A stretch of DNA of 64,000 nucleotides. Source: a virus. Its lineage: Duplodnaviria; Heunggongvirae; Uroviricota; Caudoviricetes; Crassvirales. The DNA lies in IMG/VR virus record IMGVR_UViG_2974789010_000001, positions 10,182 through 74,181 of that record; one strand, 5' to 3'. The position numbers and the translations under genes were made by a program. Below the pieces are notes generated by a model. That model did not search any database. It was not told where the DNA came from and worked only from the letters and a program-made list of their open reading frames with translations. This document shows positions 2,424 to 47,113 of this stretch, one piece after another; positions within the stretch are counted from its first letter, which is position 1, and each line of letters opens with the position of its first letter.

Positions 2424-3516
2424 CTGTTATATTAAGGCTCTTTATCCTTAATTCTCCTCTTTTCAAAGGAGTATCGGACTATATCACCATCCTTTACAGG
2501 ATGCCCAGCACTCGTGTCAGTATTATATTCTATGTGTAGTATAGGAGACTCGAACTCCTGTGATAGCTAATCCTCTTCCAACATAGTAGTAGGTCTACCT
2601 ATTAATGTAGTTCGCATACAACTACCTCTTACCACATATAGTTTCAACTGTTAGTCTCTGAACCTTCCAACTTTGTTAAAGGTTGGCTCGGCTGCTGATT
2701 AGCATGATTTAGTATTTTATTACACATTTCAAATAGTTCCTCCGTTGACATATCCCCTTTCATCCAATTAACTCTCTTTGTTACCCATTGAAGATTTCCT
2801 CTAATATAACCTTTAGAAGAGTCTATTCTATCTAAAGATAAAGGTAAATCCTTCCTTACATGGTCTAAAGAACCATCTTCAGGAAGAAGATTATCTCCAG
2901 TTAAGGCACATTTGAAATCCTGTAATTCAAGTAAGTCATATAGATATTCAGGGGTTACATCTTCTGCAAATTCCTTATTTCTCAGAATTGCATTTCCTCT
3001 TAACCTATTTATAAAACTTTCTCTAAAGTTAGATACTATTTTTCCATTGGCGCATCTTCTACAACTTTGATATTTAGTTGAATCCATAATTTGTGATGCA
3101 GGCATCCATCTTTCATTCCCACATTGACATCTAACTCTATATCTAAGTTGATTATTTATGTACTCAGGTCCAGATATAACTTCCCATGTGCCAAATCTAT
3201 ATCCTAATGGGATATTTAACCTCCTATTTTTATTAGAGCATTCTTTACACATAGTAGTTCTGCCATTCTTAAGGGATGAGCATTGAACATAATACTCTTT
3301 CCCACACTCACATCTAACTTTATAGTAATAACTATTCTTAATTCTTGTCCTAGAATTTTCTATGACTGTTAATTTTCCAAATTTGTCTCCTATATTTACC
3401 ATATTCATTAAATTTTCATATGCAAATATACAACAAATTTTTCAATTACCCAAATAATAAAATACTAAATTTTAGCTTTCCAGCAATTCACTGGGTTTTC
3501 TTAACACATTACTGTA
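2424..3516 (-). mobile_element. Intron-like insertion (probably group I) interrupting thyX, carrying an HNH homing endonuclease ORF
   Basis: thyX is split after ...DRGVSHKEF-V and resumes at EFVRHR. Both junctions share GAATTTGT. About 108 nt of non-coding sequence lie 5' of the endonuclease ORF and about 220 nt lie 3'. The 3' part contains a structured tRNA-like T-loop element (GGAGTTCGAGTCTCC). Confidence 0.6.
2644..3408 (-). CDS. HNH homing endonuclease with an N-terminal Cys-rich DNA-binding region, encoded inside the thyX intron
   Basis: C-terminal block SLDRIDSSKGYIRGNLQWVTKRVNWMKG plus several CxxC pairs. Paralog of ORF 10464..11231. Confidence 0.75.
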   Translation of the reverse strand: MNMVNIGDKFGKLTVIENSRTRIKNSYYYKVRCECGKEYYVQCSSLKNGRTTMCKECSNKNRRLNIPLGYRFGTWEVISGPEYINNQLRYRVRCQCGNERWMPASQIMDSTKYQSCRRCANGKIVSNFRESFINRLRGNAILRNKEFAEDVTPEYLYDLLELQDFKCALTGDNLLPEDGSLDHVRKDLPLSLDRIDSSKGYIRGNLQWVTKRVNWMKGDMSTEELFEMCNKILNHANQQPSQPLTKLEGSETNS

Positions 3517-4139: not shown

Positions 4140-4376
4140 CTACTCATACTTCATGCACTGTTTAGCATCCATGAACCTCTCTTTAAGGTACTCTTGACCT
4201 CCCCAAGTAGTCCATTTATACCTAGCCTTAACTCTTACTCTGCCTAAGCTAACTATAACACCAAGGTTCATTGTTGTTGAACTAGTAGGTATGGCTACCT
4301 TATCTTCTAAGTGAAGCCTATTACCTCTGATGTCATACAACTCAGGCTCTCCTACTATTTTAACTTTATCTTCCAT
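4140..4376 (-). CDS. Hypothetical small protein
   Basis: 78-aa ORF. Confidence 0.4.
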   Translation of the reverse strand: MEDKVKIVGEPELYDIRGNRLHLEDKVAIPTSSTTMNLGVIVSLGRVRVKARYKWTTWGGQEYLKERFMDAKQCMKYE

Positions 4377-4533
4377 GTTTTTTTACAATTTTACAACAAT
4401 ACCACTTTGGTAGTCTTTGGACTCACTAAGGGCTTCTTCATAGGTATCAAATACCTTAGTTAAGCCAGTGTCTTCATCTACTACCAAGTTGATATTGCCA
4501 TTAAAATCTTCAATTACAACATACCTTTCCATA

Positions 4534-4782
4534 TCAGTCATCTAATACTACAACTTCATCAATATCAAACTCTTTAGGAAACTTGCCATCACTTACCTTC
4601 TGCCTAAAAGCATCTCTAATCTGCTCCTCAGTAGCATCTGGAGGCAACTCTACTTCATCATAGTAAGATATACTTGCACTAACAAACCTTTTATGTTTAA
4701 CATCTAAAGGTTCATTATATGGTGCTTTTTCATCATGAGTAGCACCAGCAGGCAAGTAACAGCTTTCAAATAAACATCCCAT
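4534..4782 (-). CDS. Hypothetical small acidic protein
   Basis: 82-aa ORF. Confidence 0.4.
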   Translation of the reverse strand: MGCLFESCYLPAGATHDEKAPYNEPLDVKHKRFVSASISYYDEVELPPDATEEQIRDAFRQKVSDGKFPKEFDIDEVVVLDD

Positions 4783-5067: not shown

Positions 5068-5406
5068 TTAATATTGTCTTACATTATAACAATTATCACA
5101 TAAACCACCTTCATGTGTTGAAGGTTTACCACAATACCTACATCTTTCAACTGCATTGAACCCAAGTTCTCTACTTGATTGAGTAGAATTACTCACTACT
5201 TCTCTTATTAGTGAGAAAGCTTGTGTTAGCTTTTCCACTTCTACTGATGTTAGTATTCCAGTTCCAGAGTAATAGGGAATAGACATACCTTTCAACCTCC
5301 AAAGTATGTTATTTCTAGCTCTCCACTTCCTCTGTTTCTCAGTAGGTTGCCTATCTCTATTAGGACTAGCATTAACTGGTCCTGCATAAATCCCCTGTTG
5401 ACTCAT
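5068..5406 (-). CDS. Hypothetical protein with a C-terminal zinc ribbon
   Basis: C-terminal CRYCGKPSTHEGGLCDNCY (CxxC...CxxC). Confidence 0.45.
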   Translation of the reverse strand: MSQQGIYAGPVNASPNRDRQPTEKQRKWRARNNILWRLKGMSIPYYSGTGILTSVEVEKLTQAFSLIREVVSNSTQSSRELGFNAVERCRYCGKPSTHEGGLCDNCYNVRQY

Positions 5407-5849
5407 ACATTTTCAATTATTGATTTATACCTTTCATAAGTCTTCCTTATTACTTCTTCACCAATAGGATTCTCTCTCTTAGAGTCCCTCTCAATACACA
5501 CCTCAAGAGGTATAAAGAAATCTTTATACTCTAGTGAGTAACAATTCATATAACCAAGGGTACTATCAACTAAGTTTTCATAGTATTCTATCTCTTTTGG
5601 ATTGAAATTCATGTTATCAACAACAATATCATATCCAAATTCCATAGCACTTACTATGAAGTCTTTCTTTATATCAGATACAAGATGTTCTCTACTTGGA
5701 ACCCAGTATTTACCAAGCATGTTTCTGATGTCATCATTATTGAACCTTACTCTATGCTCTGGGTCTTCAAGTACCCATTGTTTAGCCCAAGTAGTTTTAC
5801 CTGAGCCTTGTATTCCTCTACATAAGATTATCTTACTCATAGCCTGCAT
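5403..5849 (-). CDS. P-loop NTPase or kinase (polynucleotide or nucleotide kinase-like)
   Basis: Walker A ILCRGIQGSGKTTWAKQW at the N-terminus. 148 aa. Confidence 0.55.
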   Translation of the reverse strand: MQAMSKIILCRGIQGSGKTTWAKQWVLEDPEHRVRFNNDDIRNMLGKYWVPSREHLVSDIKKDFIVSAMEFGYDIVVDNMNFNPKEIEYYENLVDSTLGYMNCYSLEYKDFFIPLEVCIERDSKRENPIGEEVIRKTYERYKSIIENV

Positions 5850-6258
5850 CTAATTGTCTGATTCTCTCTTTAGCTATATGAATTATCTTCTCATAGTCAA
5901 GTTTTCTACTATCAGTTTCCTTAGTTCTAAGTATCCTTTTAACAATATCTGCATCCCAAGGATTTAGATTATATTCTAACCATATATCCCAAGGTTGAAT
6001 TTTATGTTTAGCATAATCAGATTGTCCTACATTATAGCTTCTAACATCTTCTTGAGTCTGAGACACTTGAAGAGTATTGGGTAATGAGAAGCTTTTGAAG
6101 AAATAATTATACTCCCATTCATGCTCTTCTTTAGTATCATCTACTAAATAAATACTGGTATTTTTTATTTTAGTTACAGTATAACACTTGCCTACATCAA
6201 AGTATAAACTCTTTTTTCCTTCATATATGACCTTATCACCTACTTTTAACATTCCCAT
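5833..6258 (-). CDS. DUF3310-like phage protein
   Basis: The pattern YAKHKIQPWDIW...NPWDADIVKRILR resembles the DUF3310 family. From memory, not verified. Confidence 0.4.
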   Translation of the reverse strand: MGMLKVGDKVIYEGKKSLYFDVGKCYTVTKIKNTSIYLVDDTKEEHEWEYNYFFKSFSLPNTLQVSQTQEDVRSYNVGQSDYAKHKIQPWDIWLEYNLNPWDADIVKRILRTKETDSRKLDYEKIIHIAKERIRQLDAGYE

Positions 6259-9722: not shown

Positions 9723-10259
9723 TTACTTAACACCAGTACTACCTATTCCAGTTCTGTTGTTACCATTCAATTTCTGAACCTTTACAAGTTCAATGCCTGA
9801 GCTAAAGAGCCATTTAAGCTTCTGCCACATAGTAGCTTTCTGACTTAACTGAATTCTGAATTGGCAGATTCTATCACCTTTATGAATAGTAGTATCTCTG
9901 ATAGCAATAGCAGGGAACTTCCATTCATCATCATTTCCTTGATATGAATTATCAATTACACCTTGGCTATTAGCACAGATTATACCTAGCTTACTAGGAG
10001 TGCTACTTCTTGCATCTACAATTGCTTCAAAGCCAGCAGGGAGTTGCATTGCCACTCCTAAGTTAAGTAAGTGACAATTAAAAGATACATCTCTATGACT
10101 TATCACTTCACCATCAATAGTTTCTCTCTTCCTTACACCAGCTTGAGGTGCTTTTAACACTACATCCTCTGCTGCCCTAAGGTCAATCCAGTCACCTTTC
10201 TCTATTATTTCAGGCATACAGCCTTCTGTTATTTCTCTTATCTTTATCTTCAATTTCAT
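9723..10259 (-). CDS. dut: dUTPase
   Basis: All five dUTPase motifs are present: IDARSS, GVIDNSYQG, GDRICQF, RTGIGSTG. Confidence 0.85.
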   Translation of the reverse strand: MKLKIKIREITEGCMPEIIEKGDWIDLRAAEDVVLKAPQAGVRKRETIDGEVISHRDVSFNCHLLNLGVAMQLPAGFEAIVDARSSTPSKLGIICANSQGVIDNSYQGNDDEWKFPAIAIRDTTIHKGDRICQFRIQLSQKATMWQKLKWLFSSGIELVKVQKLNGNNRTGIGSTGVK

Positions 10260-15628: not shown

Positions 15629-16668
15629 GCTGGCTGTAAATTATTTATTTTCATAATACCATTCCTTTCTCTAGCTTCTTTAGTGTATTTAATATCTGGT
15701 GACTGTAAGTAATAATGAAGTTCTACAAGAAGTTTCCTCCAATTTCTATATATATTACCTTTATCATCCTTCATATCAACTTCACTAAAGTTACCATAAT
15801 ACCTCCATACAAGTGGAGCTAATGTAAACCTATTAATTACTATAAAACTATAGTGTGCAATCTTAAAGTCCTTGAAGTATTCATCTTTACTAATTACTTG
15901 TTGAAGTATATATGTATAAAGCTGTGCTTGTATCATATATCTCCATGTAACAAATGATTGTTCAAAGTCTTCCTCTGCATGACCAGAAGTCTTTAAGTCA
16001 ATAGGATAAATTATCTTCTCTTGATGGTCAACTACTAACTCATCAAACATACATCTGACAGATATTCCATTAAACTCAGCTTTGAATTTTAATTGGAATT
16101 CCTTTTCAAATCTAGTATCAAATGGGTTAATCTTGAAGAATCCTTTAGTATAAGGATTAGTCTTAAGTTCATTAACACAGGCAACAGTATCATCATAGTC
16201 TTTCTGAGACAAGATTTCTTTATCTGTTGATAGTGCAAGTAACTTATAATAATCTCCACATTTGCTTCTAATATGCTTGAGTTTAGCCTCATCCCCCCAA
16301 TTAGATTGATAGGAAGGAGAGTGTGCTAATATTATCTCATCAGGTACTAAATCAAGACTTCTATAGTCATTACCATAACCATTGAATAGTTCTTTAGTTA
16401 ATGATATTAGTACCTCTGATAATGATGGAAATTCACACACCATAAATCTCTGTGTAAAAGCTGCTTCACCATCAGTTAGCATAGTGTCAACTGCACTGCC
16501 AAATCTTAATGCTGGTGATTCAATCTTATCAAAGAGACTTCCAATCTTTCTCCAACCTTCTCTATCAAACCTACTTAATGTAGAATAACTGATAGCTGGG
16601 TCTGCTCTATAAACAGATTCTGTAACTTGCCAACTTATGGACTTAATACTCTTCTGCATAATCTTCAA
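15625..16668 (-). CDS. PD-(D/E)XK nuclease (RecB/Cas4-like exonuclease)
   Basis: IDLKTSGH (D-x-K) and a QAQLYTYIL QxxxY motif. Confidence 0.55.
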   Translation of the reverse strand: MKIMQKSIKSISWQVTESVYRADPAISYSTLSRFDREGWRKIGSLFDKIESPALRFGSAVDTMLTDGEAAFTQRFMVCEFPSLSEVLISLTKELFNGYGNDYRSLDLVPDEIILAHSPSYQSNWGDEAKLKHIRSKCGDYYKLLALSTDKEILSQKDYDDTVACVNELKTNPYTKGFFKINPFDTRFEKEFQLKFKAEFNGISVRCMFDELVVDHQEKIIYPIDLKTSGHAEEDFEQSFVTWRYMIQAQLYTYILQQVISKDEYFKDFKIAHYSFIVINRFTLAPLVWRYYGNFSEVDMKDDKGNIYRNWRKLLVELHYYLQSPDIKYTKEARERNGIMKINNLQPA

Positions 16669-36352: not shown

Positions 36353-36564
36353 CCTACACTCCTTTCTGGATTAGGTATTATCTCCCATCCTTCTTTAAAG
36401 TATGGTTTATCTGCCCACAACAGGAATTCTTCTTCTGTGAAGTTAATTCCATCTTCAAAGTAGTAAAGACCATTGGTACACTTAGTTACCCACTCTTCTT
36501 TGTCAAAATATCTATGCCTTACTCTATGAGTTTGCATAGCCTTTAATGCTTCTTGTAATGTCAT
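36349..36564 (-). CDS. Hypothetical small protein
   Basis: 71-aa ORF. Confidence 0.4.
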   Translation of the reverse strand: MTLQEALKAMQTHRVRHRYFDKEEWVTKCTNGLYYFEDGINFTEEEFLLWADKPYFKEGWEIIPNPERSVG

Positions 36565-36765
36565 ACTATTCCTCTTTTAAAGTACAATCTATGTATTTTA
36601 ATTATATACAATGAAAATACCAGATGTTTGATTACCTGTAATCAGCAGGAACATCTGGTATTAATAGTAGTCTATCAGCCAACACAACCGTTCTTATTGA
36701 GTCTACTAAAGTAACTTTACTAATGTAAGAGGTTACAATCCATCATGGGTGAAAGTTAGTGTATA

Positions 36766-36897
36766 CAAACCATCGTACTCCTTATAAGACTCGAACCTAT
36801 GACCCACAGATTAGAAATATGTCAACTATTATGTGCTAATTGTCATAGAATAGTTCACTCTGAAATGGAATAACTTCTGTTGCTCTATCCAACTGAG
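36766..36897 (-). tRNA. tRNA gene with a roughly 58-nt insertion in the anticodon loop (anticodon unresolved; possibly TCT)
   Basis: Minus-strand reading gives a canonical scaffold: acceptor GCTCCTT/AAGGAGT, D-arm TAGCTCAGTTGGATAGAGCA, anticodon stem ACAGA/TCTGT, variable GGGTC, T-arm ATAGG-TTCGAGT-CTTAT. A 65-nt element replaces the 7-nt anticodon loop. Confidence 0.5.
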
Positions 36898-37001
36898 CTA
36901 AAGGAGCATTTGTATAGTCTATATTCACATACTGACTATACTAAGTTAACTGAAAATTACCAAAACAGTTAACATACAAAACCATTATTCATCTATAAAA
37001 C

Positions 37002-37454
37002 CTAATCCTTATCTATAGTTATGAGTATGTTTGTCTTATCTTTATATAGTATTACAAATTCATACTCATCACATATCTCTTTCCATTCTTGGCTATATGG
37101 CTCTACATCTTGTATTGCATCTAATGCCTCAAGCAGTAGAGTGAATGTTTCTTCATCCATTGAGATTACTGCATTATCAAATTCAGCATCTAAGTCTGTA
37201 TAGACTGCCCAATATACTTCATCACCATCAGCAGTTGTAGACATCTTTGTATCTATAACATTATTGATATAGAATCCACAATAGTCCCAGCCTTCATAGC
37301 CTTCATCAGGAACTAATGTACCATCAAGGTCTTTCTCCTTATATACATTATCTACACAAGAAGAACACATTGTTACTACTGTTGCTATTAATAAGCAACT
37401 GATAAGGGCTGACATTAAGTACAGCCCAAATGATTTGATACTAATCTTTTCCAT
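37002..37454 (-). CDS. Putative acidic lipoprotein
   Basis: Signal peptide with a Cys-containing lipobox-like region (MCSSC). Acidic. Confidence 0.4.
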   Translation of the reverse strand: MEKISIKSFGLYLMSALISCLLIATVVTMCSSCVDNVYKEKDLDGTLVPDEGYEGWDYCGFYINNVIDTKMSTTADGDEVYWAVYTDLDAEFDNAVISMDEETFTLLLEALDAIQDVEPYSQEWKEICDEYEFVILYKDKTNILITIDKD

Positions 37455-37553
37455 GTTTCACAAGTTTACCAATTGGACCATATTTATTTAGCTCTTTCTT
37501 AAGAACAGCATACTTTCTTCTGCTCTCTTCATTTTTGAAATCTTGCATTGTTT

Positions 37554-37832
37554 TCATAATGAATCAAATACCTCTTTAGGTAAATACTGTCTATACTCTT
37601 TGCCAGTTCTAGCACTTATCCTTAGTATGAAACAAGACTTTGAAGTCTTGTATATAGGATACTTCTTGCCTTTAGTCTCAAAGAAATAGGTTGTTTTAAC
37701 AGGCTCCTCCTTTACCTTTTTCTTTGATACATAACTGAATGTATTATCAGTTTTAACTACTTTAATGCTATCATTAGCATAGATAGCCACACTACCTAGT
37801 AACATGGCTATCATTATAATAAGATGTTTCAT
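37554..37832 (-). CDS. Secreted small protein
   Basis: N-terminal signal peptide MKHLIIMIAMLLGSVAIYA. Confidence 0.4.
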   Translation of the reverse strand: MKHLIIMIAMLLGSVAIYANDSIKVVKTDNTFSYVSKKKVKEEPVKTTYFFETKGKKYPIYKTSKSCFILRISARTGKEYRQYLPKEVFDSL

Positions 37833-38059
37833 ACTGCTCTATTTAGTCTAAACTCTTCAAGTTTCTTAATCAAACCTTCCTCAAATCTCTCAAGAGGTGA
37901 GAGAGTTTTAGGTGTGGAAGTAGTGCTAATCATAAGGAATAATGCACTATTGTTTACATGATTCTCTTCAAGCATAGCTCTATGAGCTTTCTTTGATTGA
38001 GTATAATTGCTTGATGAAGCAATACATGCTCTATTAATTCTCTTTCTCATGTTATTCAA
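37829..38059 (-). CDS. Hypothetical small protein
   Basis: 76-aa ORF. Confidence 0.35.
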   Translation of the reverse strand: MNNMRKRINRACIASSSNYTQSKKAHRAMLEENHVNNSALFLMISTTSTPKTLSPLERFEEGLIKKLEEFRLNRAV

Positions 38060-38378
38060 ATATTATATTAAGGATTCTTCTCCACTTAGATTGTCTTATT
38101 TCTATAGGAGATTGTTTAGTAGCTCTACTTCCTAGCCTAGTTACCTTTCTATTGGTATTCTGATTTTTACTACCAAACAAGCTAAATAGTGCTTTATCTT
38201 TAGTATTACAATTTGCTTTAGCTAATACTTGATAGTAATGTGTAGATACACTCCCTACACTTCTATTTAACTCTTGAGCACACTCTCTAAAAGCTTGAGA
38301 TAAATTGCTAGGATTAGCACTTACTTTACTAAGGATTATTAAATTTTCTTCCTTAGTGTACCTGTTTCTACTTTCCAT
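38052..38378 (-). CDS. Hypothetical protein, possible HTH DNA-binding
   Basis: 108 aa with a helix-turn-helix-like stretch LSQAFRECAQELNRSVGSVSTHYYQV. Confidence 0.35.
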   Translation of the reverse strand: MESRNRYTKEENLIILSKVSANPSNLSQAFRECAQELNRSVGSVSTHYYQVLAKANCNTKDKALFSLFGSKNQNTNRKVTRLGSRATKQSPIEIRQSKWRRILNIIFE

Positions 38379-38571
38379 TTTGATTGTTATTTGTTAATTG
38401 TTATACTCTAAAGAATAAATGAGTAGCTCTATAGCATTGACAGGCTTTTATTTAACTATAGAATCTTATGTTTCCCAGCTTCAAGGGTACTACTCATTTA
38501 TAAAAAGGGAACCAGTTATCAGAGTCCACTGAGGGGTTGCCCAGACACTTGCCTTTCCCAACACATGTGTG

Positions 38572-38683
38572 AAGCATATACTGGATTTGAACCAGTGACC
38601 TTTCTTTATTAGTACAATTACAGGAGTACTACCCAATTTACCATAGTCAATAAAGAATGCTCTAACCACTGAGCTAATATGCT
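38572..38683 (-). tRNA. tRNA gene with a roughly 39-nt hairpin insertion in the anticodon loop (anticodon unresolved; possibly TGA)
   Basis: Scaffold: acceptor AGCATAT/ATATGCT, D-arm TAGCTCAGTGGTTAGAGC, anticodon stem TTCTT/AAGAA, variable AGGTC, T-arm ACTGG-TTCAAAT-CCAGT. 46 nt lie between the anticodon stem halves, including a perfect hairpin TAGTAC...GTACTA. Confidence 0.5.
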
Positions 38684-39423
38684 TATACTTCTTCTAAACT
38701 AATGTAGCTGTAAGGTATCCATTACACATTTAATTCCTTGAACTAACCTAGGAAACTACTTAATAACTAAACAGTTTTACTTGCTTTTATTTTCTTTTTA
38801 CCAGCACTGTAACAGATATCTGGACTTGTTATCCCTTTACTTTCATTTGGATACAACAGTACGTAATTTACCGTAACTAAGATATAAGACATCACTACTA
38901 TGTAGATTATAGTCTGCACACAGTCCTTGGACCATACCCTAAGGCTCTCTAGATTTCATGCGGGTTAGATAATACTTTCAAACTGTATACTTTGCTGGCT
39001 TAATACACTAATGTATGTCACAGCTATACACCTTCTCTAGTGAAGCTTATAGTTATTATATTAGTCTAGCTTTCTATTATTTATATGTATCTTCTTATAA
39101 GTTTCATAGGTTTAGCCCCCTATGCAATGTCATTAGTTACTATTCCTTCAACTAATAAACCAGGCATGATTGTGCATTGGTTCAATTAATTCTGATTTGT
39201 ATCTCCAATATGTGTTATTTAATGCAATAAGGAGAGGTTTTATTGCTTATTTTAGTCTCTTTTGCTCTCTTTTGATGATATAATACAGCCAATTGTTATA
39301 GCAAATACAGCTATTATTGTCCATACTATGTCACTTGTTAATGATGGTTCTAATAAGTTCATACAGTAAATATAGTTATGTATTTGCTAATCTTTGCTTA
39401 TGACAAGTAGTAAAAAGGAGTGT

Positions 39424-42033: not shown

Positions 42034-42157
42034 TGTCATGTATTTAAGTGGACAAGCCACTTGTTAATACTCTTCTAGTGCTACAGACTAACTTGATTAT
42101 CAGTGGCTTGACATTTGTTAACTAAAATATATTGCATTTTATTTGCATATATCAATG

Positions 42158-42179
42158 ATTTTACTTACCTTTGCAGAGT
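42158..42179 (+). promoter_or_regulatory. Promoter-like motif GATTTTACTTACCTTTGCAGAG, with TTTG about 21 nt upstream
   Basis: The -7-like TAccTTTG sits at 42166-42173 and TTTG at 42142-42145. This spacing fits Bacteroidota sigma-A promoters. The motif precedes the tRNA cluster. Confidence 0.55.
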
Positions 42180-42196
42180 CATTTGATAAGAGATAC

Positions 42197-42269
42197 TGCC
42201 CCATAGTATAAAGGGTTATTACATATGATTTTGGCTCATATAATGTAGGTTCAATTCCTGCTGGGGTAA
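42197..42269 (+). tRNA. tRNA-Gln (anticodon TTG)
   Basis: Acceptor TGCCCCA/TGGGGTA, anticodon arm TATGA-TTTTGGC-TCATA, T-arm GTAGG-TTCAATT-CCTGC. Confidence 0.65.
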
Positions 42270-42285
42270 CTGTTGATTAATAGAT

Positions 42286-42879
42286 ATGATAGAAAATAAT
42301 AAAGAAACTTTAGAGAGATTAATATTAGAAGAGGAAAAATCCTATGAAGAAATAGGAAGGATGTTTAATGTGTCAGGCAATGCTATAAAGAAAAGAGCAC
42401 TGAAATTTGGAATGGAATTGCCTAAAAGGAGAGTTATAAATAACTCAGAGAATTTTAATAAAGGTCTAGTTAAAGTTAATATGAATACCTGTAAGACTTG
42501 TGGGAGGGAGTACAAGTTAAGGAAGTCTAATTCTAACCATTACTGCTCTCACAAATGTCAGCAATTAGCTAGACATAAAGAGGCATACAACAAGATAAAA
42601 GTAGGAGATAGCTCAATAATGAGAGCTAATTATTCTCCCTCTTTATTCAGAGAGGATATATTAAAGGAGCAGGGAAATAAATGTGATATATGTGGTATAT
42701 CTCCTATATGGAATGAAAAGAAATTGGTATTTATAGTAGACCATATAGATGGAAATGCTTCAAACAATAGAAGAGATAACCTTAGATGTATATGTCCTAA
42801 TTGTGACTCTCAATTAGATACTTATAAGTCTAAAAATAAAAATGGAGCAAGATATTATTATAGATATAAGCAGGGATAG
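42286..42879 (+). CDS. HNH homing endonuclease
   Basis: VFIVDHIDGNASNNRRDNLRCICPNCD. Confidence 0.7.
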   Translation: MIENNKETLERLILEEEKSYEEIGRMFNVSGNAIKKRALKFGMELPKRRVINNSENFNKGLVKVNMNTCKTCGREYKLRKSNSNHYCSHKCQQLARHKEAYNKIKVGDSSIMRANYSPSLFREDILKEQGNKCDICGISPIWNEKKLVFIVDHIDGNASNNRRDNLRCICPNCDSQLDTYKSKNKNGARYYYRYKQG

Positions 42880-42953
42880 AACGTAATGGAAGCGTAATAG
42901 TCTTCTAAACTATTGTCTTTATGACCTTGTGAGTTCGAGTCTCACTCCCTGTA
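42870..42953 (+). tRNA. tRNA with anticodon loop CTTCTAA (anticodon TCT, Arg-like) and a 15-nt variable region
   Basis: Acceptor GCAGGGA/TCCCTGT, anticodon arm ATAGT-CTTCTAA-ACTAT, T-arm GTGAG-TTCGAGT-CTCAC. The 5' end overlaps the stop of the HNH ORF. Confidence 0.5.
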
Positions 42954-43059
42954 CTTGGATTTTCTATTTCATAATGTAAATGAACTACAATGGGATAAAT
43001 TGGATTTCATGTTTTTAGACCACTCTGGTCTGTGAAGATAGGAGTGGTTATTTTTTAAA

Positions 43060-43134
43060 TGTTGGGTTGGACAAATTGGTTAAGTCACCACCCTTTCAAG
43101 GTGGTCAATATGGGTTCAGGTCCTATATCCTCCG
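43060..43134 (+). tRNA. tRNA-like sequence, possibly Glu (TTC), with a poorly paired acceptor stem
   Basis: Clear anticodon arm CCACC-CTTTCAA-GGTGG and T-arm ATGGG-TTCAGGT-CCTAT. I could not pair the acceptor stem. Possible pseudo-tRNA. Confidence 0.3.
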
Positions 43135-43140
43135 CATAAT

Positions 43141-43213
43141 ATAGGTGTAATTCAGTTGGTAGAATGCTGCATTTGGGATGCAGTTGTCACAGGTTCGAGT
43201 CCTGTCATCTATA
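43141..43213 (+). tRNA. tRNA-Pro (TGG)
   Basis: Acceptor ATAGGTG/CATCTAT, D-arm ATTC...GAAT, anticodon arm CTGCA-TTTGGGA-TGCAG, T-arm CACAG-GTTCGAGT-CCTGT. Confidence 0.7.
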
Positions 43214-43218
43214 CAAAT

Positions 43219-43290
43219 GGGTCATGTAGTGTAATTGGCTAACACATCACATTTGCACTGTGAAGTTGGGGTTCAAGTCCCACATGTATC
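43219..43290 (+). tRNA. tRNA-Ala (TGC), approximate boundaries
   Basis: Anticodon arm TCACA-TTTGCAC-TGTGA and T-loop GGGGTTCAAGTCCC. Acceptor pairing is only partly resolved. Confidence 0.5.
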
Positions 43291-43364
43291 CACTTGTTTT
43301 CATGTTTTCATAATGTTAGAGTTTTTAGTTCACAGGTCTAGGGTACACCTTAAGTACCCTGCAC

Positions 43365-43438
43365 TGCTCCTTAGTTCAGTGGTTTAGAATAGCACTTTTA
43401 CACAGTGAAGGTCATTAGTTCGATTCTAATAGGAGCAA
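43365..43438 (+). tRNA. tRNA-Val (TAC)
   Basis: Acceptor TGCTCCT/AGGAGCA (perfect), D-arm GTTC-AGTGGTTTA-GAAT, anticodon loop TTTACAC, T-arm ATTAG-TTCGATT-CTAAT. Confidence 0.7.
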
Positions 43439-43447
43439 CATTTAATT

Positions 43448-43518
43448 GGGAGTATAGCTCGAAGGTCGAGCACTTGACTGTTAATCAATAGGTGAAAGTT
43501 CGATTCTTTCTATTCCCG
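43448..43518 (+). tRNA. tRNA-Asn (GTT)
   Basis: Acceptor GGGAGTA/TATTCCC, D-arm GCTC...GAGC, anticodon arm CTTGA-CTGTTAA-TCAAT, T-loop GTTCGATTC. Confidence 0.7.
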
Positions 43519-43519
43519 C

Positions 43520-43768
43520 ATGGAAGAAATAAGATATTGTAATAAACATGGAAACACTTTATTTGCAGTAGATTCAGAAGGCAGATGGAGGTGTAGAAAA
43601 TGTAGAGTTGAAGCTGTACAGAAAAGAAGAGAAAGAACCAAAGAAATGGCTGTAGAATACAAAGGTGGAAAATGTTGTATTTGTGGCTATGATAGGTATC
43701 TTGGAGCTTTGGAGTTTCATCATTTAGACCCAGATGAAAAAGACTTTGTTATGTACATTAGAGTTTGA
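43520..43768 (+). pseudogene. Truncated HNH endonuclease ORF (N-terminal zinc finger and HH motif only)
   Basis: CNKHGN...CRKC...CCICGY...ALEFHHLDPDEKDF, then the ORF ends before the final CxxC-H block expected in a complete HNH domain. Starts inside the 3' end of tRNA-Asn. Confidence 0.45.
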
Positions 43769-43859
43769 AACAAGTGAGAAAGATATAGTGAACTATGAAT
43801 CTTATGCACTATTCAAGGGTATGGGTAATGATACATTAGGTCATTATAATACATAATAT

Positions 43860-43930
43860 GTATCCTTAGTTTAATGATAGAATGTTGCTCTCCAAAAGCA
43901 AAGGTAGTAGTTCGATTCTATTAGGATATG
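43860..43930 (+). tRNA. tRNA-Trp (CCA)
   Basis: Acceptor GTATCCT/AGGATAT, anticodon arm TTGCT-CTCCAAA-AGCAA, T-arm AGTAG-TTCGATT-CTATT. Confidence 0.7.
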
Positions 43931-43936
43931 CTATAT

Positions 43937-44013
43937 TGAGTTGTATCTCCTCTGTCTGATAAGCAGTAGAAAGAGTAATTGGTCACATGTGGGTTCAATT
44001 CCCACCTTCTCAA
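43937..44013 (+). tRNA. tRNA-like sequence, degenerate
   Basis: Clear T-arm GTGGG-TTCAATT-CCCAC and a partial acceptor TGAGTTG/CTTCTCA (5 of 7 bp). No clean anticodon arm found. Confidence 0.3.
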
Positions 44014-44019
44014 CTTATA

Positions 44020-44094
44020 TTCTGATATACTTCAACAGGTAGGAGGCTGCTCTCATAAGGCAGTAGTTATAGGTTCAAGTCCTATTATCAGAAC
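44020..44094 (+). tRNA. tRNA-Met (CAT)
   Basis: Acceptor TTCTGAT/ATCAGAA, anticodon arm CTGCT-CTCATAA-GGCAG, T-arm TTATAGGTTCAAGTCCTATTA. Confidence 0.7.
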
Positions 44095-44167
44095 TGTGTG
44101 GATAGCTTATCTGGTAAAAGTGCTTCACTGTGAATGAAGAGATAGGGTTCGAGTCCCTGCCACACCC
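44095..44167 (+). tRNA. tRNA-His (GTG)
   Basis: Anticodon arm CTTCA-CTGTGAA-TGAAG, T-arm TAGGG-TTCGAGT-CCCTG, acceptor GTGTGG/CCACAC with an extra 5' nucleotide. Confidence 0.65.
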
Positions 44168-44181
44168 TTTTAACTTATAAT

Positions 44182-44255
44182 GCTGAGGTAGCACAAGTGG
44201 TAAATGCAGATGGCTTATATCCATAAGATAGTGGGTTCAAATCCTACCCTCAGTA
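44182..44255 (+). tRNA. tRNA with anticodon TAT (Ile-AUA reader?)
   Basis: Acceptor GCTGAGG/CCTCAGT, anticodon loop CTTATAT, T-arm GTGGG-TTCAAAT-CCTAC. Confidence 0.55.
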
Positions 44256-44264
44256 CAATTAAAT

Positions 44265-44337
44265 GCCTCTATAGCTGAATGGTTAAAGCTGCTCCCTCTT
44301 AAGGAGAAGATTCTAAGTTCGATTCTTAGTGGAGGTA
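44265..44337 (+). tRNA. tRNA-Lys (CTT)
   Basis: Acceptor GCCTCTA/TGGAGGT, anticodon loop CTCTTAA, T-arm CTAAG-TTCGATT-CTTAG. Confidence 0.6.
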
Positions 44338-44458
44338 CATAGTTTATAGGATACTTGATTTGGGACAGAAGGCTTACACAACTGCTCCACCAGAGGACAA
44401 CCATTAAGATAACCAGTCAAGATATAGATGATAATGTCATGGAAGCTAACTATAAAAC

Positions 44459-44531
44459 TCCCCTATAGCAGACAGGTTGTGGGCACTAATCTTTTAAATT
44501 AGGAGGTCTGGTTCAATTCCAGATGGGGGAA
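44459..44531 (+). tRNA. tRNA-Lys (TTT)
   Basis: Acceptor TCCCCTA/TGGGGGA, anticodon arm CTAAT-CTTTTAA-ATTAG, T-arm TCTGG-TTCAATT-CCAGA. Confidence 0.65.
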
Positions 44532-44542
44532 CAAAATATAAT

Positions 44543-44637
44543 GGGTACATAACATCAGCAGACTGTAAATCTGCCCTCCTTTATCAAATTGATGTAATGG
44601 ACTTTGGAGTAGGGGAGTTCGAGTCTCTCTGTGCCCA
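44543..44637 (+). tRNA. tRNA-Tyr (GTA)-like with aberrant architecture (very short D region, 38-nt variable region containing a hairpin)
   Basis: Acceptor GGGTACA/TGTGCCC, anticodon arm GCAGA-CTGTAAA-TCTGC, T-arm GGGAG-TTCGAGT-CTCTC. Only about 8 nt separate the acceptor from the anticodon stem. The variable region contains ATCAA-A-TTGAT. Confidence 0.45.
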
Positions 44638-44705
44638 CTTCAACAGAAATCTTTGTCCTTGACTTATGGAAGGTGATGTAGGTAGAGATACAAATAAGTC
44701 ATTAT

Positions 44706-44780
44706 GGGTGCTGGGCAGGTATGGTTACATTGCGCAGGTCTGAAAAACCTGAGAATAAAGTTCGATTCTTTAAACACCCA
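44706..44780 (+). tRNA. tRNA-Phe (GAA)
   Basis: Acceptor GGGTGCT/AACACCC (one mismatch), anticodon arm CAGGT-CTGAAAA-ACCTG, T-arm TAAAG-TTCGATT-CTTTA. Confidence 0.7.
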
Positions 44781-44785
44781 CTAAT

Positions 44786-44874
44786 GCCCTTTTGGTGGAA
44801 TTTGGTAGACACTCTGGATTTAGGCTCCAGTACGAAATAATAGTAGTGTAAGAGTTCGAGTCTCTTAGAGGGCA
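44786..44874 (+). tRNA. tRNA-Leu (TAG), type II
   Basis: Acceptor GCCCTTT/AGAGGGC, anticodon arm CTGGA-TTTAGGC-TCCAG, 19-nt variable arm, T-arm AAGAG-TTCGAGT-CTCTT. Confidence 0.7.
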
Positions 44875-44875
44875 C

Positions 44876-45331
44876 ATGAATAGTAAAAGAAAATATATAG
44901 AGGATAATATTGATTTCATTCTAAAATGTAATGAGGAAAGATTACCATTAGTAGAAGTTTCAAGGAGATTAAAAGTTAAGTATTTAACTTTAAGAAAATA
45001 CATTAAACTACTAAATATTCCTTATACAAACAATCCTAATAGAAAGGGTCTTCCACATACAGATGGAAGGAAATCAATAGAGGAAATATTGCATGGAAAT
45101 AGTTCTAATACTTTTAAGAGAATAGTTCTTATAAGAGAGGGAATTAAAGAAGAAGTGTGTGAATGTTGTAAGTTATCAGAATGGATGGGTAAGCCAATTC
45201 CATTAGAATTACATCATATAGATTTTAATCATTATAATAATGATTTATCTAACATTCAAATATTATGTGCTAACTGTCACATGCAAGCTCATAACTATAG
45301 TAATACAAGGGAAGCTGGTGCAACTGGTTGA
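44876..45331 (+). CDS. HNH homing endonuclease flanked by two tRNA-Leu(TAG) genes
   Basis: CECCKLSEWMGKPIPLELHHIDFNHYNNDLSNIQILCANCH. The last roughly 12 codons overlap the 5' half of the second tRNA-Leu. Confidence 0.75.
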   Translation: MNSKRKYIEDNIDFILKCNEERLPLVEVSRRLKVKYLTLRKYIKLLNIPYTNNPNRKGLPHTDGRKSIEEILHGNSSNTFKRIVLIREGIKEEVCECCKLSEWMGKPIPLELHHIDFNHYNNDLSNIQILCANCHMQAHNYSNTREAGATG

Positions 45332-45395
45332 GACACAATGGATTTAGGCTCCATAAGTAGAAATACTTCTAAGGGTTCGACTCCCTTGCTTCCTA
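45309..45395 (+). tRNA. tRNA-Leu (TAG), second copy, type II
   Basis: Acceptor GGGAAGC/GCTTCCT, anticodon arm ATGGA-TTTAGGC-TCCAT, 16-nt variable arm AAGTA...TACTT, T-arm AAGGG-TTCGACT-CCCTT. Confidence 0.7.
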
Positions 45396-45453
45396 CTACA
45401 ACATTTTTTAACAATAAAAAGTATGTGATTTACTTGTATAGTTCAATTAAAAT

Positions 45454-45470
45454 ACATACCTTTGTAACAT
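45454..45470 (+). promoter_or_regulatory. Promoter-like motif TACATACCTTTGTAACA
   Basis: TAccTTTG core, about 20 nt upstream of the ATG at 45487. Confidence 0.45.
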
Positions 45471-45486
45471 CAAAACAAAGAGATAT

Positions 45487-45933
45487 ATGGAATATGGTTT
45501 ACTAACTCCAATTGAGGATAATGAGGTAAATGAAACATCATTTAATGGTGCAGAATTCTTTATTAACTTCATAAATAAACTAGAAGGTTACAAGACAAAG
45601 TGTAAGAATCTTCACTGGGCAGCACCTAAGAAGAATATTCATGTTTACTTAGATGACTTTCTAGAGAAAGTCGAAGACTTTCAAGATATTCTAGCAGAAG
45701 GTTATATGGGAATTTTAGGTAAGATGCAGCCTAATGTTATTAAAGGAGTCCCTAGTGATGCACTAAATGCAATGGACTTCATTGAAGAAGTTAGGAGTAA
45801 TACACTAGCTTTCTATGATAAGATTCCCCAAGAAACAATCTATGTTGGTATCAAGTCTGAGTGTGAGACTTTCATTCAAGAGGTTAATCAATACAAGTAT
45901 TTATTTAGCTTGTGTGATATTAGACCTTACTAA
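45487..45933 (+). CDS. Hypothetical protein
   Basis: 148-aa ORF. Confidence 0.45.
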   Translation: MEYGLLTPIEDNEVNETSFNGAEFFINFINKLEGYKTKCKNLHWAAPKKNIHVYLDDFLEKVEDFQDILAEGYMGILGKMQPNVIKGVPSDALNAMDFIEEVRSNTLAFYDKIPQETIYVGIKSECETFIQEVNQYKYLFSLCDIRPY

Positions 45934-45934
45934 T

Positions 45935-46010
45935 AGCTTAGTGGTGCAACTTGGTAGACACAACAGACTTAAACCCTGTACAAGTGAGGGTTCAACTCCC
46001 TCCTAAGCTA
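45935..46010 (+). tRNA. tRNA with anticodon TAA (would read UUA) but class I (short variable loop) architecture
   Basis: Acceptor AGCTTAG/CTAAGCT (perfect), anticodon region ACAGA-CTTAAAC-CCTGT (4 bp plus a mismatch), 6-nt variable loop, T-arm GAGGG-TTCAACT-CCCTC. Confidence 0.55.
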
Positions 46011-46020
46011 CTAAGTTAAT

Positions 46021-46092
46021 GCTTCTTTCATATAAAGGTTATTATGCCTCTCTTGTAAAGAGGTCATGTGGGTTCAATTCCTACAAGAAGCT
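46021..46092 (+). tRNA. tRNA-Thr (TGT)
   Basis: Acceptor GCTTCTT/AAGAAGC (perfect), anticodon arm CCTCT-CTTGTAA-AGAGG, T-arm GTGGG-TTCAATT-CCTAC. Confidence 0.75.
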
Positions 46093-46254
46093 CAAGAAGT
46101 TACTAAAAGCTGTGTTCCATTCAGTGACAGAGTAACATTCCTTGGCTCAATGGAAACTAGGTTTTTATCATTTTTCCCTAGTGAGATGTGAAGGAAGGTG
46201 CTGGCTAAGGTCATCCCAGCAAGAGAAGTACCAGTTGCCAAATCTTCTCAATAA

Positions 46255-46327
46255 GCAGGTGTGGTGTAGTGCTTTACATGTCTGCCTTCCAAGCAGAAGA
46301 CCAAGGGTTGGAATCCCTTTACCTGCA
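46255..46327 (+). tRNA. tRNA-Gly (TCC)
   Basis: Acceptor GCAGGTG/TACCTGC, anticodon arm TCTGC-CTTCCAA-GCAGA, T-arm AAGGG-TTGGAAT-CCCTT. Confidence 0.7.
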
Positions 46328-46342
46328 CAAACTTAGATAAAG

Positions 46343-46798
46343 TTGAAAGACAATATTATGAAAGAAAGTAGGAAAAAGAAAGATGAACAATTAGGAATGC
46401 CACTAGGAACTGCTAGTGCCAAACTTAGAAAGTCAATACTATTCTCTTTATTAAGAGAATCTCATAAGAATGTATGCTATCAATGTGGTAGAATAATAGA
46501 TGAAGAAGATGAGTTATCTATAGAACATAAGATACCTTGGCTGGATTCTGATAATCCAAAAGAGCTATTCTTTAATTTAGAGAATATAGCATTCTCACAT
46601 CTGTCCTGCAATATAAGTGCTGCTAGGCAGAATAGAGAGGGCAAAAGAGAATCTCAAAGAAAATTAGTAGTAGAGGGAAGAACTAAAAGAACTAATCTCA
46701 CTATAGAAACAGTGAGAAATATAAAAACTGATTTAGCTACTATGAGTAGAAAAGACATATGTAATAAATATGGTATTACTAAAATCTACTTTGGCTAA
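46343..46798 (+). CDS. HNH homing endonuclease
   Basis: CYQCGRIIDEEDELSIEHKIPWLD...NIAFSHLSCN. Confidence 0.65.
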   Translation: MKDNIMKESRKKKDEQLGMPLGTASAKLRKSILFSLLRESHKNVCYQCGRIIDEEDELSIEHKIPWLDSDNPKELFFNLENIAFSHLSCNISAARQNREGKRESQRKLVVEGRTKRTNLTIETVRNIKTDLATMSRKDICNKYGITKIYFG

Positions 46799-46843
46799 CA
46801 TTTGCTAGAGGAGAAACATTTCAGTATATAGATTAAGGGATAA

Positions 46844-46913
46844 TGCAGGTTGGTGTAAAGGCTAGCATTTGAGGCTCATAACCTCAAGATAGGGTTCGAG
46901 TCCCTGCCTGCCA
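46844..46913 (+). tRNA. tRNA with anticodon CAT (second Met/Ile2-type), approximate boundaries
   Basis: Anticodon arm TGAGG-CTCATAA-CCTCA, T-arm TAGGG-TTCGAGT-CCCTG. The acceptor pairing is imperfect: a CCTGCCTGCC duplication lies at the 3' end. Confidence 0.5.
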
Positions 46914-47113
46914 CTATTAGAAACTAAAAGCAATATAGCTATGGGAGAGAAAGAAGAAGTTAAAGCTACATATATGACAGCATTTGCTGAGAACAGCATT
47001 AGAGCTATTGTAGAAAGAGCTAATGAATTAGAGATTAAAAGAGAGAATATAGTGTCTCTTCTTAGTGAGAGAGGTCAGTATGTTCTAGTATATTACAAGT
47101 AAACTTAGAAAAC

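Follow-up and report, generated by a model that had tools for sequence, protein, structure and literature searches.

Do phage transfer RNA (tRNA) genes contain short introns that are spliced out of the anticodon loop? This question is raised by a stretch of 64,000 nucleotides (nt) from a Kolpuevirus-like crAss phage of the gut (Crassvirales; IMG/VR virus record IMGVR_UViG_2974789010_000001, positions 10,182 to 74,181; this whole stretch is called the window in the following), which contains two minus-strand tRNA genes with oversized anticodon loops at 36775..36907 and 38572..38683 as well as a plus-strand tRNA-Tyr-like element of unusual layout at 44543..44637. A preliminary description of this DNA, made from the letters alone, read the two minus-strand insertions as possible mini-introns, or as short inserts of a new kind that some novel mechanism processes, and named disabled or regulatory tRNA-like elements as the fallback. 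Both minus-strand elements do exist and are tRNA-shaped apart from the oversized anticodon loop, as seen with ARAGORN and Rfam. The intron proposal, however, did not survive comparison with related phages: one insert appears to be the stump of an HNH endonuclease gene and the other an integral, covarying arm, and it is the fallback that proved essentially right, with a disabled tRNA-Arg gene and a non-decoding tRNA-like RNA. We consider it likely that the three elements are unrelated to one another and that none of them is a spliced mini-intron; the third would then be a working tRNA-Tyr with rewired strand connectivity. Much of the evidence comes from the uncultured phage cr126_1 (Kolpuevirus hominis; Steigviridae, Asinivirinae), which is 97.8% identical to the window in the region 36500-39000, and from further relatives, here denoted by contig numbers such as L011.

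The interrupted tRNA-Arg gene

With introns allowed, ARAGORN recognized the first minus-strand element as tRNA-Arg(tct), c[36775,36907], and placed a 58-nt insert behind nt 32 of the gene; the Rfam tRNA model remained below threshold for the interrupted gene. The earlier count of 65 nt in the loop position is correct (58 + 7), but the earlier coordinates (36766..36897, minus strand) were about 10 nt off. The gene consists of the following parts:

36876..36907, minus strand: 5' part of tRNA-Arg(UCU) with acceptor, D-arm and anticodon-stem 5' strand, 32 nt; called by ARAGORN and identical to the same part in cr126_1 and others, where the tRNA-Arg gene is not interrupted
36818..36875, plus strand: 58-nt insert, antisense to the tRNA, read as an HNH stump on the basis of translation, Pfam, blastn and the L011 alignment
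36775..36817, minus strand: 3' part of tRNA-Arg(UCU) with the loop TTTCTAA, anticodon-stem 3' strand, variable loop, T-arm and acceptor 3' strand

The insertion site lies between nt 31 and 32 of the tRNA and not at 37/38. On the plus strand, translation of the insert contains CQLLCANCHRIVH and finishes in ...CQLLCANCHRIVHSEME followed by a stop codon. The top Pfam match covers positions 33-47 of the 47 positions of the HNH profile, and blastn against the phage collection returned HNH endonuclease genes in many unrelated phages. An HNH gene of the window itself (44876..45331) was rejected as donor, since only 24 nt (45256..45279, 92% identity) are common to both. A miniature repeat or mobile-element origin of either minus-strand insert was likewise discarded, given that no second copy turned up elsewhere in the window when up to 3 mismatches were allowed.

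In cr126_1, the orthologous tRNA-Arg gene spans 75 nt without interruption, and its flanks are 98-99% identical to those in the window. The gene is also uninterrupted in the phages frurule and DAC15 and in all other gene-bearing IMG/VR and metagenome relatives, except for contig L011. There, the same site of the tRNA-Arg gene holds a 467-nt insertion with an antisense HNH open reading frame (ORF) that matches the entire Pfam HNH profile (positions 1-47 of 47, E = 3.6e-4, 21.1 bits at a cut-off of 21.4). The L011 insertion begins with ~57 nt that recur in the window insert with 2 substitutions and are joined there directly to the last 1-2 bases before the 3' exon. Three states of the site were found, that is, empty in about 18 contigs, with the full insertion in L011 and with the stump in the window. 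The junction shows no target-site duplication and is ambiguous by only 1 nt. Neither the 58-nt insert nor the 467-nt insertion has an Rfam match to a group I or group II intron, and searches with the Intron_gpI model in particular gave nothing for the window, for the L011 insertion or, at E<=10, for the region 36500-39000. An exact copy of the stump is absent from IMG/VR, and the exon-insert junction occurs there in the L011 contig only, among thousands of contigs searched.

Judged by this alignment, the 58-nt insert is the deletion stump of a homing-endonuclease insertion. We propose that an HNH homing-endonuclease gene inserted in antisense orientation into the anticodon-loop DNA of the tRNA-Arg gene (nt 31/32), a state that is preserved in L011, and that an internal deletion of 409 nt would then have stripped most of the insertion in the window phage. 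The 58 nt remaining would represent 17 codons from the 3' end of the gene, its stop and a few further bases. With the insert in the transcript, no anticodon loop of 7 nt can form, so the interrupted gene copy is most likely inactive, and the tRNA-Arg(UCU) at 42870..42954 in the plus-strand tRNA array could stand in for it. The HNH gene of L011 may itself be decaying: its long frame (4200..4568, minus strand) has an in-frame TAA at codon 11, and a 94-amino-acid ORF from an internal ATG still spans the whole HNH motif.

The 112-nt tRNA-like RNA

The second minus-strand element is a complete cloverleaf with an additional structure in place of the anticodon loop:

38572..38683, minus strand: tRNA-like RNA, predicted to be non-decoding, 112 nt, full cloverleaf; Rfam tRNA model 52.3 bits, 46-nt anticodon 'loop' at 38607..38652
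38610..38631, minus strand: hairpin within the long arm, UAGUAC-UCCUGUAAUU-GUACUA, with a compensatory change in L010 and also present in L078

The Rfam tRNA model was matched over its full length (1-71) with 46 nt in the position of the 7-nt loop, as the preliminary description had it, and the TAGTAC...GTACTA hairpin that it pointed out gains support from the compensatory change. ARAGORN labels the element tRNA-Stop(tta) with a 37-nt intron, a model that requires an anticodon stem shifted by one base and an intron within the anticodon. Relatives were gathered with the downstream gene for a 76-amino-acid protein as an anchor and subsequently with sequence patterns. The resulting family comprises about 50 contigs with 26 distinct sequences from four genera, including cr126_1, frurule, DAC15 and cr112_1, and is syntenic, being located upstream of the homologue of the 76-amino-acid gene. 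Copies in public records are annotated as tRNA-Leu or tRNA-Ile (91 nt), or are unannotated.

All four cloverleaf stems of the family covary. Non-canonical cells are rare (7/546, 1.3%), and several pair types occur at most stem positions. Between the window and L010, for example, A1:U72 is replaced by G:C and the T-stem ACUGG/CCAGU by AUCAG/CUGAU, while the anticodon stem reads UUCUU/AAGAA, UCACA/UGUGA, CUAGU/ACUAG or UCCAU/AUGGA depending on the group. The nucleotides for tertiary contacts can also be read from the sequence (U8, A14, G15:C48, G18 G19 and the T-loop UUCAAAU). The anticodon loop is 10, 17, 22-25, 46, 51 or 57 nt long in the 26 members, and never 7. In Kehishuvirus-type members, the anticodon stem is longer by 3-5 covarying pairs (TAA/TTA, CAA/TTG, TCCAA/TTGGA) and is capped by the conserved apical loop UGAUU(N1-3)UAAAGGUAG. 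The apical region of the window type has diverged (...UGGGUAG) and is followed by the extra hairpin, which in L010 reads UAGUGC/GCACUA with an unchanged loop. Sequence conservation begins exactly at the 5' end of the RNA, and the flanks upstream differ.

No empty allele was found by exon-pattern scans of viral and metagenome contigs; all of the 8 metagenome and 3 viral contigs with the same 5' half or acceptor/T-arm carry the insert (11/11). The comparison of orthologues that had been suggested for both inserts hence gave a split result: the tRNA-Arg insert is missing from the relatives save L011, and the 112-nt family never occurs without its oversized loop. There is also no shared excision product, as no single excision yields a common loop with U33 and a purine at position 37, and ARAGORN assigns the anticodons UUA, AUA, AUU, AAG and AAU across the family. 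Inspection of both strands of the 46-nt insert revealed neither an endonuclease-like motif nor a conserved reading frame. A transfer-messenger RNA (tmRNA) was considered and rejected: neither ARAGORN nor Rfam reports one in the window, and the ATG..TAA frame of the insert is not kept in L010.

A possible functional context emerges from relatives of the genus Kehishuvirus. A gene for a TROVE (Ro60-like) protein lies 2-4.6 kilobases (kb) downstream of the Kehishuvirus-type tRNA-like RNA, namely at 5299..6601 of L068 (cr112_1) and at 12 further loci. When the TROVE protein of cr112_1 was used as a tblastn query, neither the window nor cr126_1 gave a match, and the gene is likewise missing from every locus of the window, frurule or DAC15 type whose flanking sequence is long enough. 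Directly downstream of the TROVE gene, a second oversized tRNA-shaped RNA of 142 nt is encoded (L107 5927..6068, plus strand; L077 5553..5695, minus strand), which matches the full Rfam tRNA model with 52.9 and 46.7 bits, respectively. Its anticodon-arm insert of ~77 nt forms a long bulged helix with compensatory changes. This 142-nt RNA is a candidate phage Y RNA on a tRNA scaffold, and with it the scaffold design recurs in this phage group. The 112-nt element is not classified as a Y RNA, because the window lacks TROVE, because its orientation is unlike that of YrlA and because the Rfam Y RNA and YrlA models had no match in the window (gathering threshold), in 36500-39000 (E<=10) or in L068 (E<=1).

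The best reading of these comparative data is that the 112-nt element is a non-decoding RNA on a tRNA scaffold with the arm as its working part. Located at the head of the early-gene block of Asinivirinae crAss-like phages, the RNA would presumably be cut out and matured like a tRNA by RNase P, RNase Z and CCA addition, and its tRNA body might serve as a stable scaffold that presents the extended arm to a partner in the manner of a Y RNA.

Two further observations concern the surroundings of these RNAs. In the window, a 316-nt stretch (38055..38370) that is missing in cr126_1 separates the tRNA-like RNA from the 76-amino-acid gene; a 108-amino-acid ORF lying there (38052..38378, minus strand) has a weak Myb-like DNA-binding match (E = 0.008). 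Phage tmRNA genes are present in L012 (4722..5026) and L077 (8097..8400, minus strand), with Rfam scores of 74.3 and 67.6 bits and the ARAGORN tag DNTYRVAA; they adjoin a tRNA-Arg(CCU) and an odd tRNA-like gene of 86-88 nt.

The putative rewired tRNA-Tyr

The third element resides on the plus strand within the tRNA array. Its parts are as follows:

44543..44637, plus strand: putative rewired tRNA-Tyr(GUA), 95 nt including discriminator A; covariation in 11 distinct relatives
44552..44557, plus strand: helix H1, 5' strand ACATCA, corresponding to the D-stem 3' strand and nt 26, continuous with the anticodon stem; pairs with 44590..44595
44590..44595, plus strand: helix H1, 3' strand TGATGT, corresponding to the D-stem 5' strand, within the variable-arm loop and followed by D-loop-like AATGG
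44576..44579, plus strand: helix H2, 5' strand CTCC, variable-arm stem; pairs with 44606..44609
44606..44609, plus strand: helix H2, 3' strand GGAG

The element shows a 7-base-pair (bp) acceptor stem, only 8 nt in the position of the D-arm, a GCAGA-CTGTAAA-TCTGC anticodon arm, ~37 nt up to the T-arm and a discriminator A, which bears out the earlier remark on a nearly absent D region and a long variable region. Neither ARAGORN nor Rfam calls it, and it is unannotated in 35/35 phage records that contain it. Over 98 nt (44543..44640), the sequence is 100% identical in the window, the cr126_1-like contig L004, crAss001 and cr112_1, that is, across two genera. The window and the other carriers are devoid of any other tRNA-Tyr, and the same slot in cr126_1, between tRNA-Lys and tRNA-Phe, is occupied by a canonical tRNA-Tyr of 83 nt. 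Pattern scans recovered the rewired layout in 40+ viral contigs of 47-241 kb; the corresponding scan of bacterial and archaeal genomes gave a single match, an ordinary tRNA-Tyr of Spartobacteria.

An alignment of 11 distinct sequences from phage contigs of this size range (47-241 kb) supports five helices: the acceptor, the T-stem, the anticodon stem, H1 (columns 10-15/48-53) and H2 (columns 34-37/64-67). Overall, 99.3% of the cells are paired and both sides change in 18/27 pairs. H1 is 100% paired in the 11 sequences with 2 covarying pairs and as many as 4 pair types at one position, and H2 is likewise 100% paired with 2 covarying pairs. In the controls, slid partners were paired at 42-54%, and shuffles reached the observed values in 0/500 cases. 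The pairings H1 and H2 are established by this covariation and, since they cross, the structure is a pseudoknot. The ATCAA-A-TTGAT hairpin proposed earlier for the variable region is present in the sequence but does not correspond to a real pairing, as relatives show A/C mismatches and the same bases covary with nt 10-15.

The rearrangement becomes apparent when the element is compared with a canonical bacterial tRNA-Tyr. The segment TAAC-NNC-A-GCAGACTGTAAATCTGCC matches, in this order, the last part of the D-loop, the D-stem 3' strand, nt 26 and the anticodon arm, and the segment U-G-N-N-G-U-A-N-U-G-G in the variable-arm loop matches the D-stem 5' strand and D-loop (A14, R15, G18, G19). Features of bacterial class II tRNA-Tyr that are present include the GUA anticodon, the 5-bp stem, the 7-nt loop, A73 and a variable stem of 4 bp, H2, that covaries. 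No contiguous D-arm lies between nt 9 and 26; the D-stem is instead formed by nt 10-15 with nt 48-53. The anticodon loop CUGUAAA and the discriminator A are invariant, and U8 and the D-loop-like A..UGG vary little or not at all.

In the model that we derive from these data, the chain would run from the acceptor stem via U8-A9 straight into the D-stem 3' strand and on into the anticodon stem, and the interior of the variable-arm loop would contribute the D-stem 5' strand and D-loop (A-N-U-G-G). Through the pseudoknot, every canonical helix and the elbow contacts could then still form. In the canonical tRNA fold, U8 adjoins A21 (the U8-A14-A21 contact) and the variable region packs against the D-stem. 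Because of these two proximities, the L-shape should still be formable, and the rewired backbone appears compatible with it. The element is presumably a charged and decoding tRNA-Tyr(GUA).

Weighing of alternative explanations

That both minus-strand inserts are real short introns, removed by an endonuclease and a ligase (of archaeal type or from phage or host RNA repair) to give tRNA-Arg(UCU) and a suppressor tRNA, is very improbable in our view. For the 112-nt element, this would mean the ARAGORN product tRNA-Stop(UUA), or a CUA anticodon if the splice site is moved by one base. The exons do form intact cloverleaf halves, both gene models come from ARAGORN with introns allowed, a polynucleotide kinase is encoded in the close relative cr126_1, and 'enigmatic' tRNA introns have been reported in Lak megaphages of Prevotella (10.1101/356790). 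Beyond this report, literature searches found no short spliced phage tRNA introns described. However, the bulge-helix-bulge motif, whose presence at the insert boundaries had been proposed as a check, was found at neither element: a custom scan for two 3-nt bulges a 4-bp helix apart at the exon-intron boundaries, which recovered its positive control, gave 0 matches in the 112-nt element and 1 in the tRNA-Arg (~0.86 in shuffled sequences), away from the boundaries and involving the T-arm. In addition, the Arg insert at 31/32 is a piece of HNH coding sequence, the ARAGORN model of the 112-nt element needs its shifted stem and an intron inside the anticodon, and the 112-nt family has no consistent anticodon; a 7-nt loop that has U33, purine 37 and one and the same anticodon in orthologues results from excision in the tRNA-Arg only (TTTCTAA), and 'introns' as short as 3 and 12 nt, which this reading would imply, are not plausible. 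Neither a splicing endonuclease nor an RNA ligase is annotated in cr126_1, where many ORFs are hypothetical and annotation is the sole guide. A suppressor tRNA was rejected on its own account as well: the UUA call hangs on an arbitrary splice site, and large late genes such as those for terminase and portal read through in the standard code without interruption and hence do not point to recoding of stop codons. That the 58-nt insert is an artefact of assembly or sequencing, created by a chimeric join, is hardly credible. The junction was recovered in just one further contig among the thousands searched, but this contig, L011, is independent, continues into a complete HNH gene and differs by two substitutions in the common part.

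For the other two elements, decay has to be weighed against function. The 112-nt element could be a functionless, decaying pseudogene, for example an Ile-like tRNA hit by a mobile insertion with lineage-specific deletion remnants, as the identical process is documented for the tRNA-Arg of the same genome. Loop lengths differ widely among lineages, the 3' half resembles phage tRNA-Ile genes with 'TGAT' still in the loop, and some relatives carry degenerate or truncated copies (L018 ~2800..2880, L085 and L022 ~2930..3010; 3' half only or arm-degenerate). Nevertheless, we regard this as improbable: in about 50 contigs from four genera, numerous compensatory changes have kept the four stems intact, covariation extends to the stem extension and the inner hairpin, the Kehishuvirus-type apical loop is conserved, and conservation sets in sharply at the 5' end of the RNA. 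Somewhat more weight, although it still strikes us as unlikely, is due to the idea that the Tyr element is a rearranged pseudogene or a non-decoding mimic, for instance a decoy for defence nucleases that target tRNA-Tyr. Its architecture is unprecedented and accepted by no tRNA finder, and phages are known to counter such nucleases, their tRNA-Tyr genes counteracting a defence that destroys the host tRNA-Tyr (PMC11555353). On the other hand, every helix covaries, and all pairs of the anticodon stem, the T-stem, H1 and H2 are intact, the loop CUGUAAA, the discriminator A and the elbow nucleotides are kept, the slot holds a canonical tRNA-Tyr in a sister phage, and the carriers have no other tRNA-Tyr.

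Several points also weigh against the account preferred here, namely a stump-bearing tRNA-Arg, a scaffold RNA and a working tRNA-Tyr. The tRNA-Arg exons are free of disabling mutations, so that inactivity is deduced only from the disrupted anticodon arm, and it is possible that the insert is excised by some other mechanism. The degenerate copies in L018, L022 and L085 indicate that the tRNA-like RNA is dispensable in some lineages, and its long arm differs greatly from genus to genus. Part of the apparent T-arm conservation is forced by the exact-match search pattern, and the 'compensatory' changes in the T-arm could in principle stem from segment swaps between tRNA genes in mosaic arrays. As to the Tyr element, the covariation comes from 11 sequences that represent perhaps 7-8 independent lineages, and its three-dimensional feasibility follows from reasoning on the canonical tRNA structure. 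A more far-reaching proposal, which to our mind could fall either way, holds that the element is a functional tyrosine-accepting and ribosome-competent tRNA with a topology unlike all known ones, widespread in phages of gut Bacteroidota and perhaps escaping host nucleases, and that the oversized-arm RNAs make up a natural class of tRNA scaffolds, one of which would serve the phage Ro60 as Y RNA. That the unusual core of the Tyr element helps to evade tRNA-Tyr nucleases is speculation.

Relation to known systems

Free-standing homing endonucleases are familiar from phage tRNA clusters, such as SegB of T4 and the HNH enzymes F-TflI, F-TflII and F-TflIV of T5. Endonuclease genes among tRNA genes, presence/absence polymorphism in close relatives and mosaic arrays are common to these clusters and the present case, which features an array with three HNH genes and one insertion in a tRNA-Arg. 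Unlike in T4 and T5, an HNH gene here went into a tRNA gene itself, antisense within the anticodon-loop DNA, and shrank to a 58-nt stump that mimics an intron. Archaeal and eukaryotic bulge-helix-bulge introns are comparable in that short inserts sit in the anticodon arm, but in our case the motif is absent, the site differs from 37/38, annotation lists no endonuclease and excision would not lead to a consistent mature anticodon. Group I introns occur in bacterial tRNA genes, for example in cyanobacterial tRNA-Leu and in Patescibacteria (PMC13011429). They share the anticodon-loop site and may contain a homing-endonuclease ORF; however, they measure ~200 nt or more, whereas the inserts reported here have 46-58 nt, lack an Intron_gpI match and, in the case of the HNH ORF, run antisense to the tRNA. 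Oversized tRNA genes in phages of Bacteroidota are also known from Lak megaphages, where they were described as containing 'enigmatic introns' (Devoto et al., bioRxiv 10.1101/356790); the Lak inserts are conserved, with excision points from software only. In contrast, the comparative data gathered here speak against splicing.

In engineered tRNA scaffolds, an RNA module is placed in the anticodon stem and gains tRNA-like processing and stability. The 112-nt element resembles these synthetic constructs in combining an intact tRNA body with a structured module in place of the anticodon loop, and to our knowledge no natural phage counterpart of this design has been characterized. Bacterial Y RNAs (YrlA/Yrn1) are tRNA mimics that bind Ro60 and are encoded near Ro60, also in phages (PMC4201824). 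They consist of a tRNA-like module (T-arm, D-arm and acceptor-like stem) plus a functional stem and are substrates of tRNA enzymes, and phages of the sister genus have both a TROVE protein nearby and the 142-nt tRNA-shaped RNA beside its gene. The architecture nevertheless differs, as YrlA ends at the anticodon-stem side and has a loop-capped acceptor stem, whereas the ends of the 112-nt element form a normal 7-bp acceptor stem. Moreover, the GNCGAA motif was not seen by eye in the 112-nt element, which is also without an Rfam Y RNA match, and TROVE is missing from the window.

Permuted and split tRNA genes (Cyanidioschyzon, Nanoarchaeum) have their canonical connectivity restored by processing at bulge-helix-bulge sites. 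The Tyr element shares a non-canonical order of segments with them, but differs in that only the 5' half of the D-arm has moved, into the variable loop. Since no simple cut-and-join yields the canonical order, the mature Tyr RNA probably keeps its pseudoknotted topology. Other departures from the cloverleaf rules comprise functional tRNAs with 8/4 and 9/3 acceptor/T branches, some of them phage-encoded (PMC5389517), and D-armless mitochondrial tRNAs, all of which, like the Tyr element, are missed by standard finders. While in those cases helices differ in length or an arm is lost, the Tyr element keeps all arms and alters the connectivity of the strands. A tRNA with a transplanted D-arm strand was not found described in the published literature.

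Genomic context and the tRNA array

Up to ~41 kb, the minus strand of the window carries genes for replication and other early genes. At 42197, an array of 20 tRNA genes begins on the plus strand, with late genes downstream. Within this array, the following features deserve mention:

42286..42879, plus strand: HNH_3 endonuclease gene between tRNA-Gln and tRNA-Arg, identified with Pfam; missing from the cr126_1-like array
42870..42954, plus strand: second tRNA-Arg(UCU), called by ARAGORN; Rfam 38.5 bits
44876..45331, plus strand: HNH endonuclease gene within the tRNA array; Pfam HNH
46343..46798, plus strand: HNH endonuclease gene between tRNA-Gly and tRNA-Met; Pfam HNH

The array is mosaic when positions 42100..47100 of the window are compared with 6800..11900 of L004: blocks of 96-99% identity alternate with blocks that are unmatched or only 82-92% identical, and a tRNA-Asp, two tRNA-Ser and a tRNA-Ile(gat) of L004 are absent from the window. 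The second tRNA-Arg(UCU) measures 85 nt, has a 13-nt variable arm and a weak D-stem and overlaps the end of the HNH_3 gene; an unrelated, normal tRNA-Arg(UCU) of 74 nt occupies the same slot in the cr126_1-like contig. Two tRNA-Leu(tag) calls (44786..44875 and 45309..45396, plus strand) flank the second HNH gene of the array (44876..45331), which starts right behind the first call and ends within the second, and only the first reaches the Rfam threshold. A duplication or displacement through this HNH gene is a possible origin of the pair.

In cr126_1 (L058), genes for a polynucleotide kinase and a HicA-like mRNase are annotated at 15692..16129, with no RNA ligase annotated; by coordinate offset, the equivalent in the window is expected approximately near 5600..6060. 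Scans for sigma-70 promoters and terminators yielded counts at the shuffled expectation, with Bacteroides and crAss promoters lying outside the scan models. Minimum-free-energy folds of single sequences were not significant (z about -1 to -1.8) and are misleading for the Tyr element and the tRNA-Arg. Rfam matches near the elements to Bacteroides-1, snoRNAs and Plastid-ycf2 were at chance level (E = 6-10).

Implications

Short 'introns' in phage tRNA genes, perhaps also in those of other Bacteroidota phages, are not to be accepted uncritically. The tRNA-Arg case illustrates that homing-endonuclease genes can insert in a tRNA gene and decay into intron look-alikes, and it may be necessary to compare the tRNA introns of Lak megaphages with their relatives in the same way. 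A group of phages that is abundant in the human gut furthermore carries a conserved, inconsistently annotated tRNA-shaped RNA with a structured arm in place of the anticodon loop. Together with the 142-nt RNA beside the phage Ro60 gene, this family offers a tractable system in which RNAs on natural tRNA scaffolds and Y RNAs of phages can be studied. All three points are open to test in the cultured phages crAss001, DAC15 and Kolpuevirus 'frurule'. If functional, the rewired tRNA-Tyr would account for the apparent lack of tRNA-Tyr in cultured crAss-like phages such as crAss001 and would mean that the L-shape of tRNA can be built from a different order of strands.

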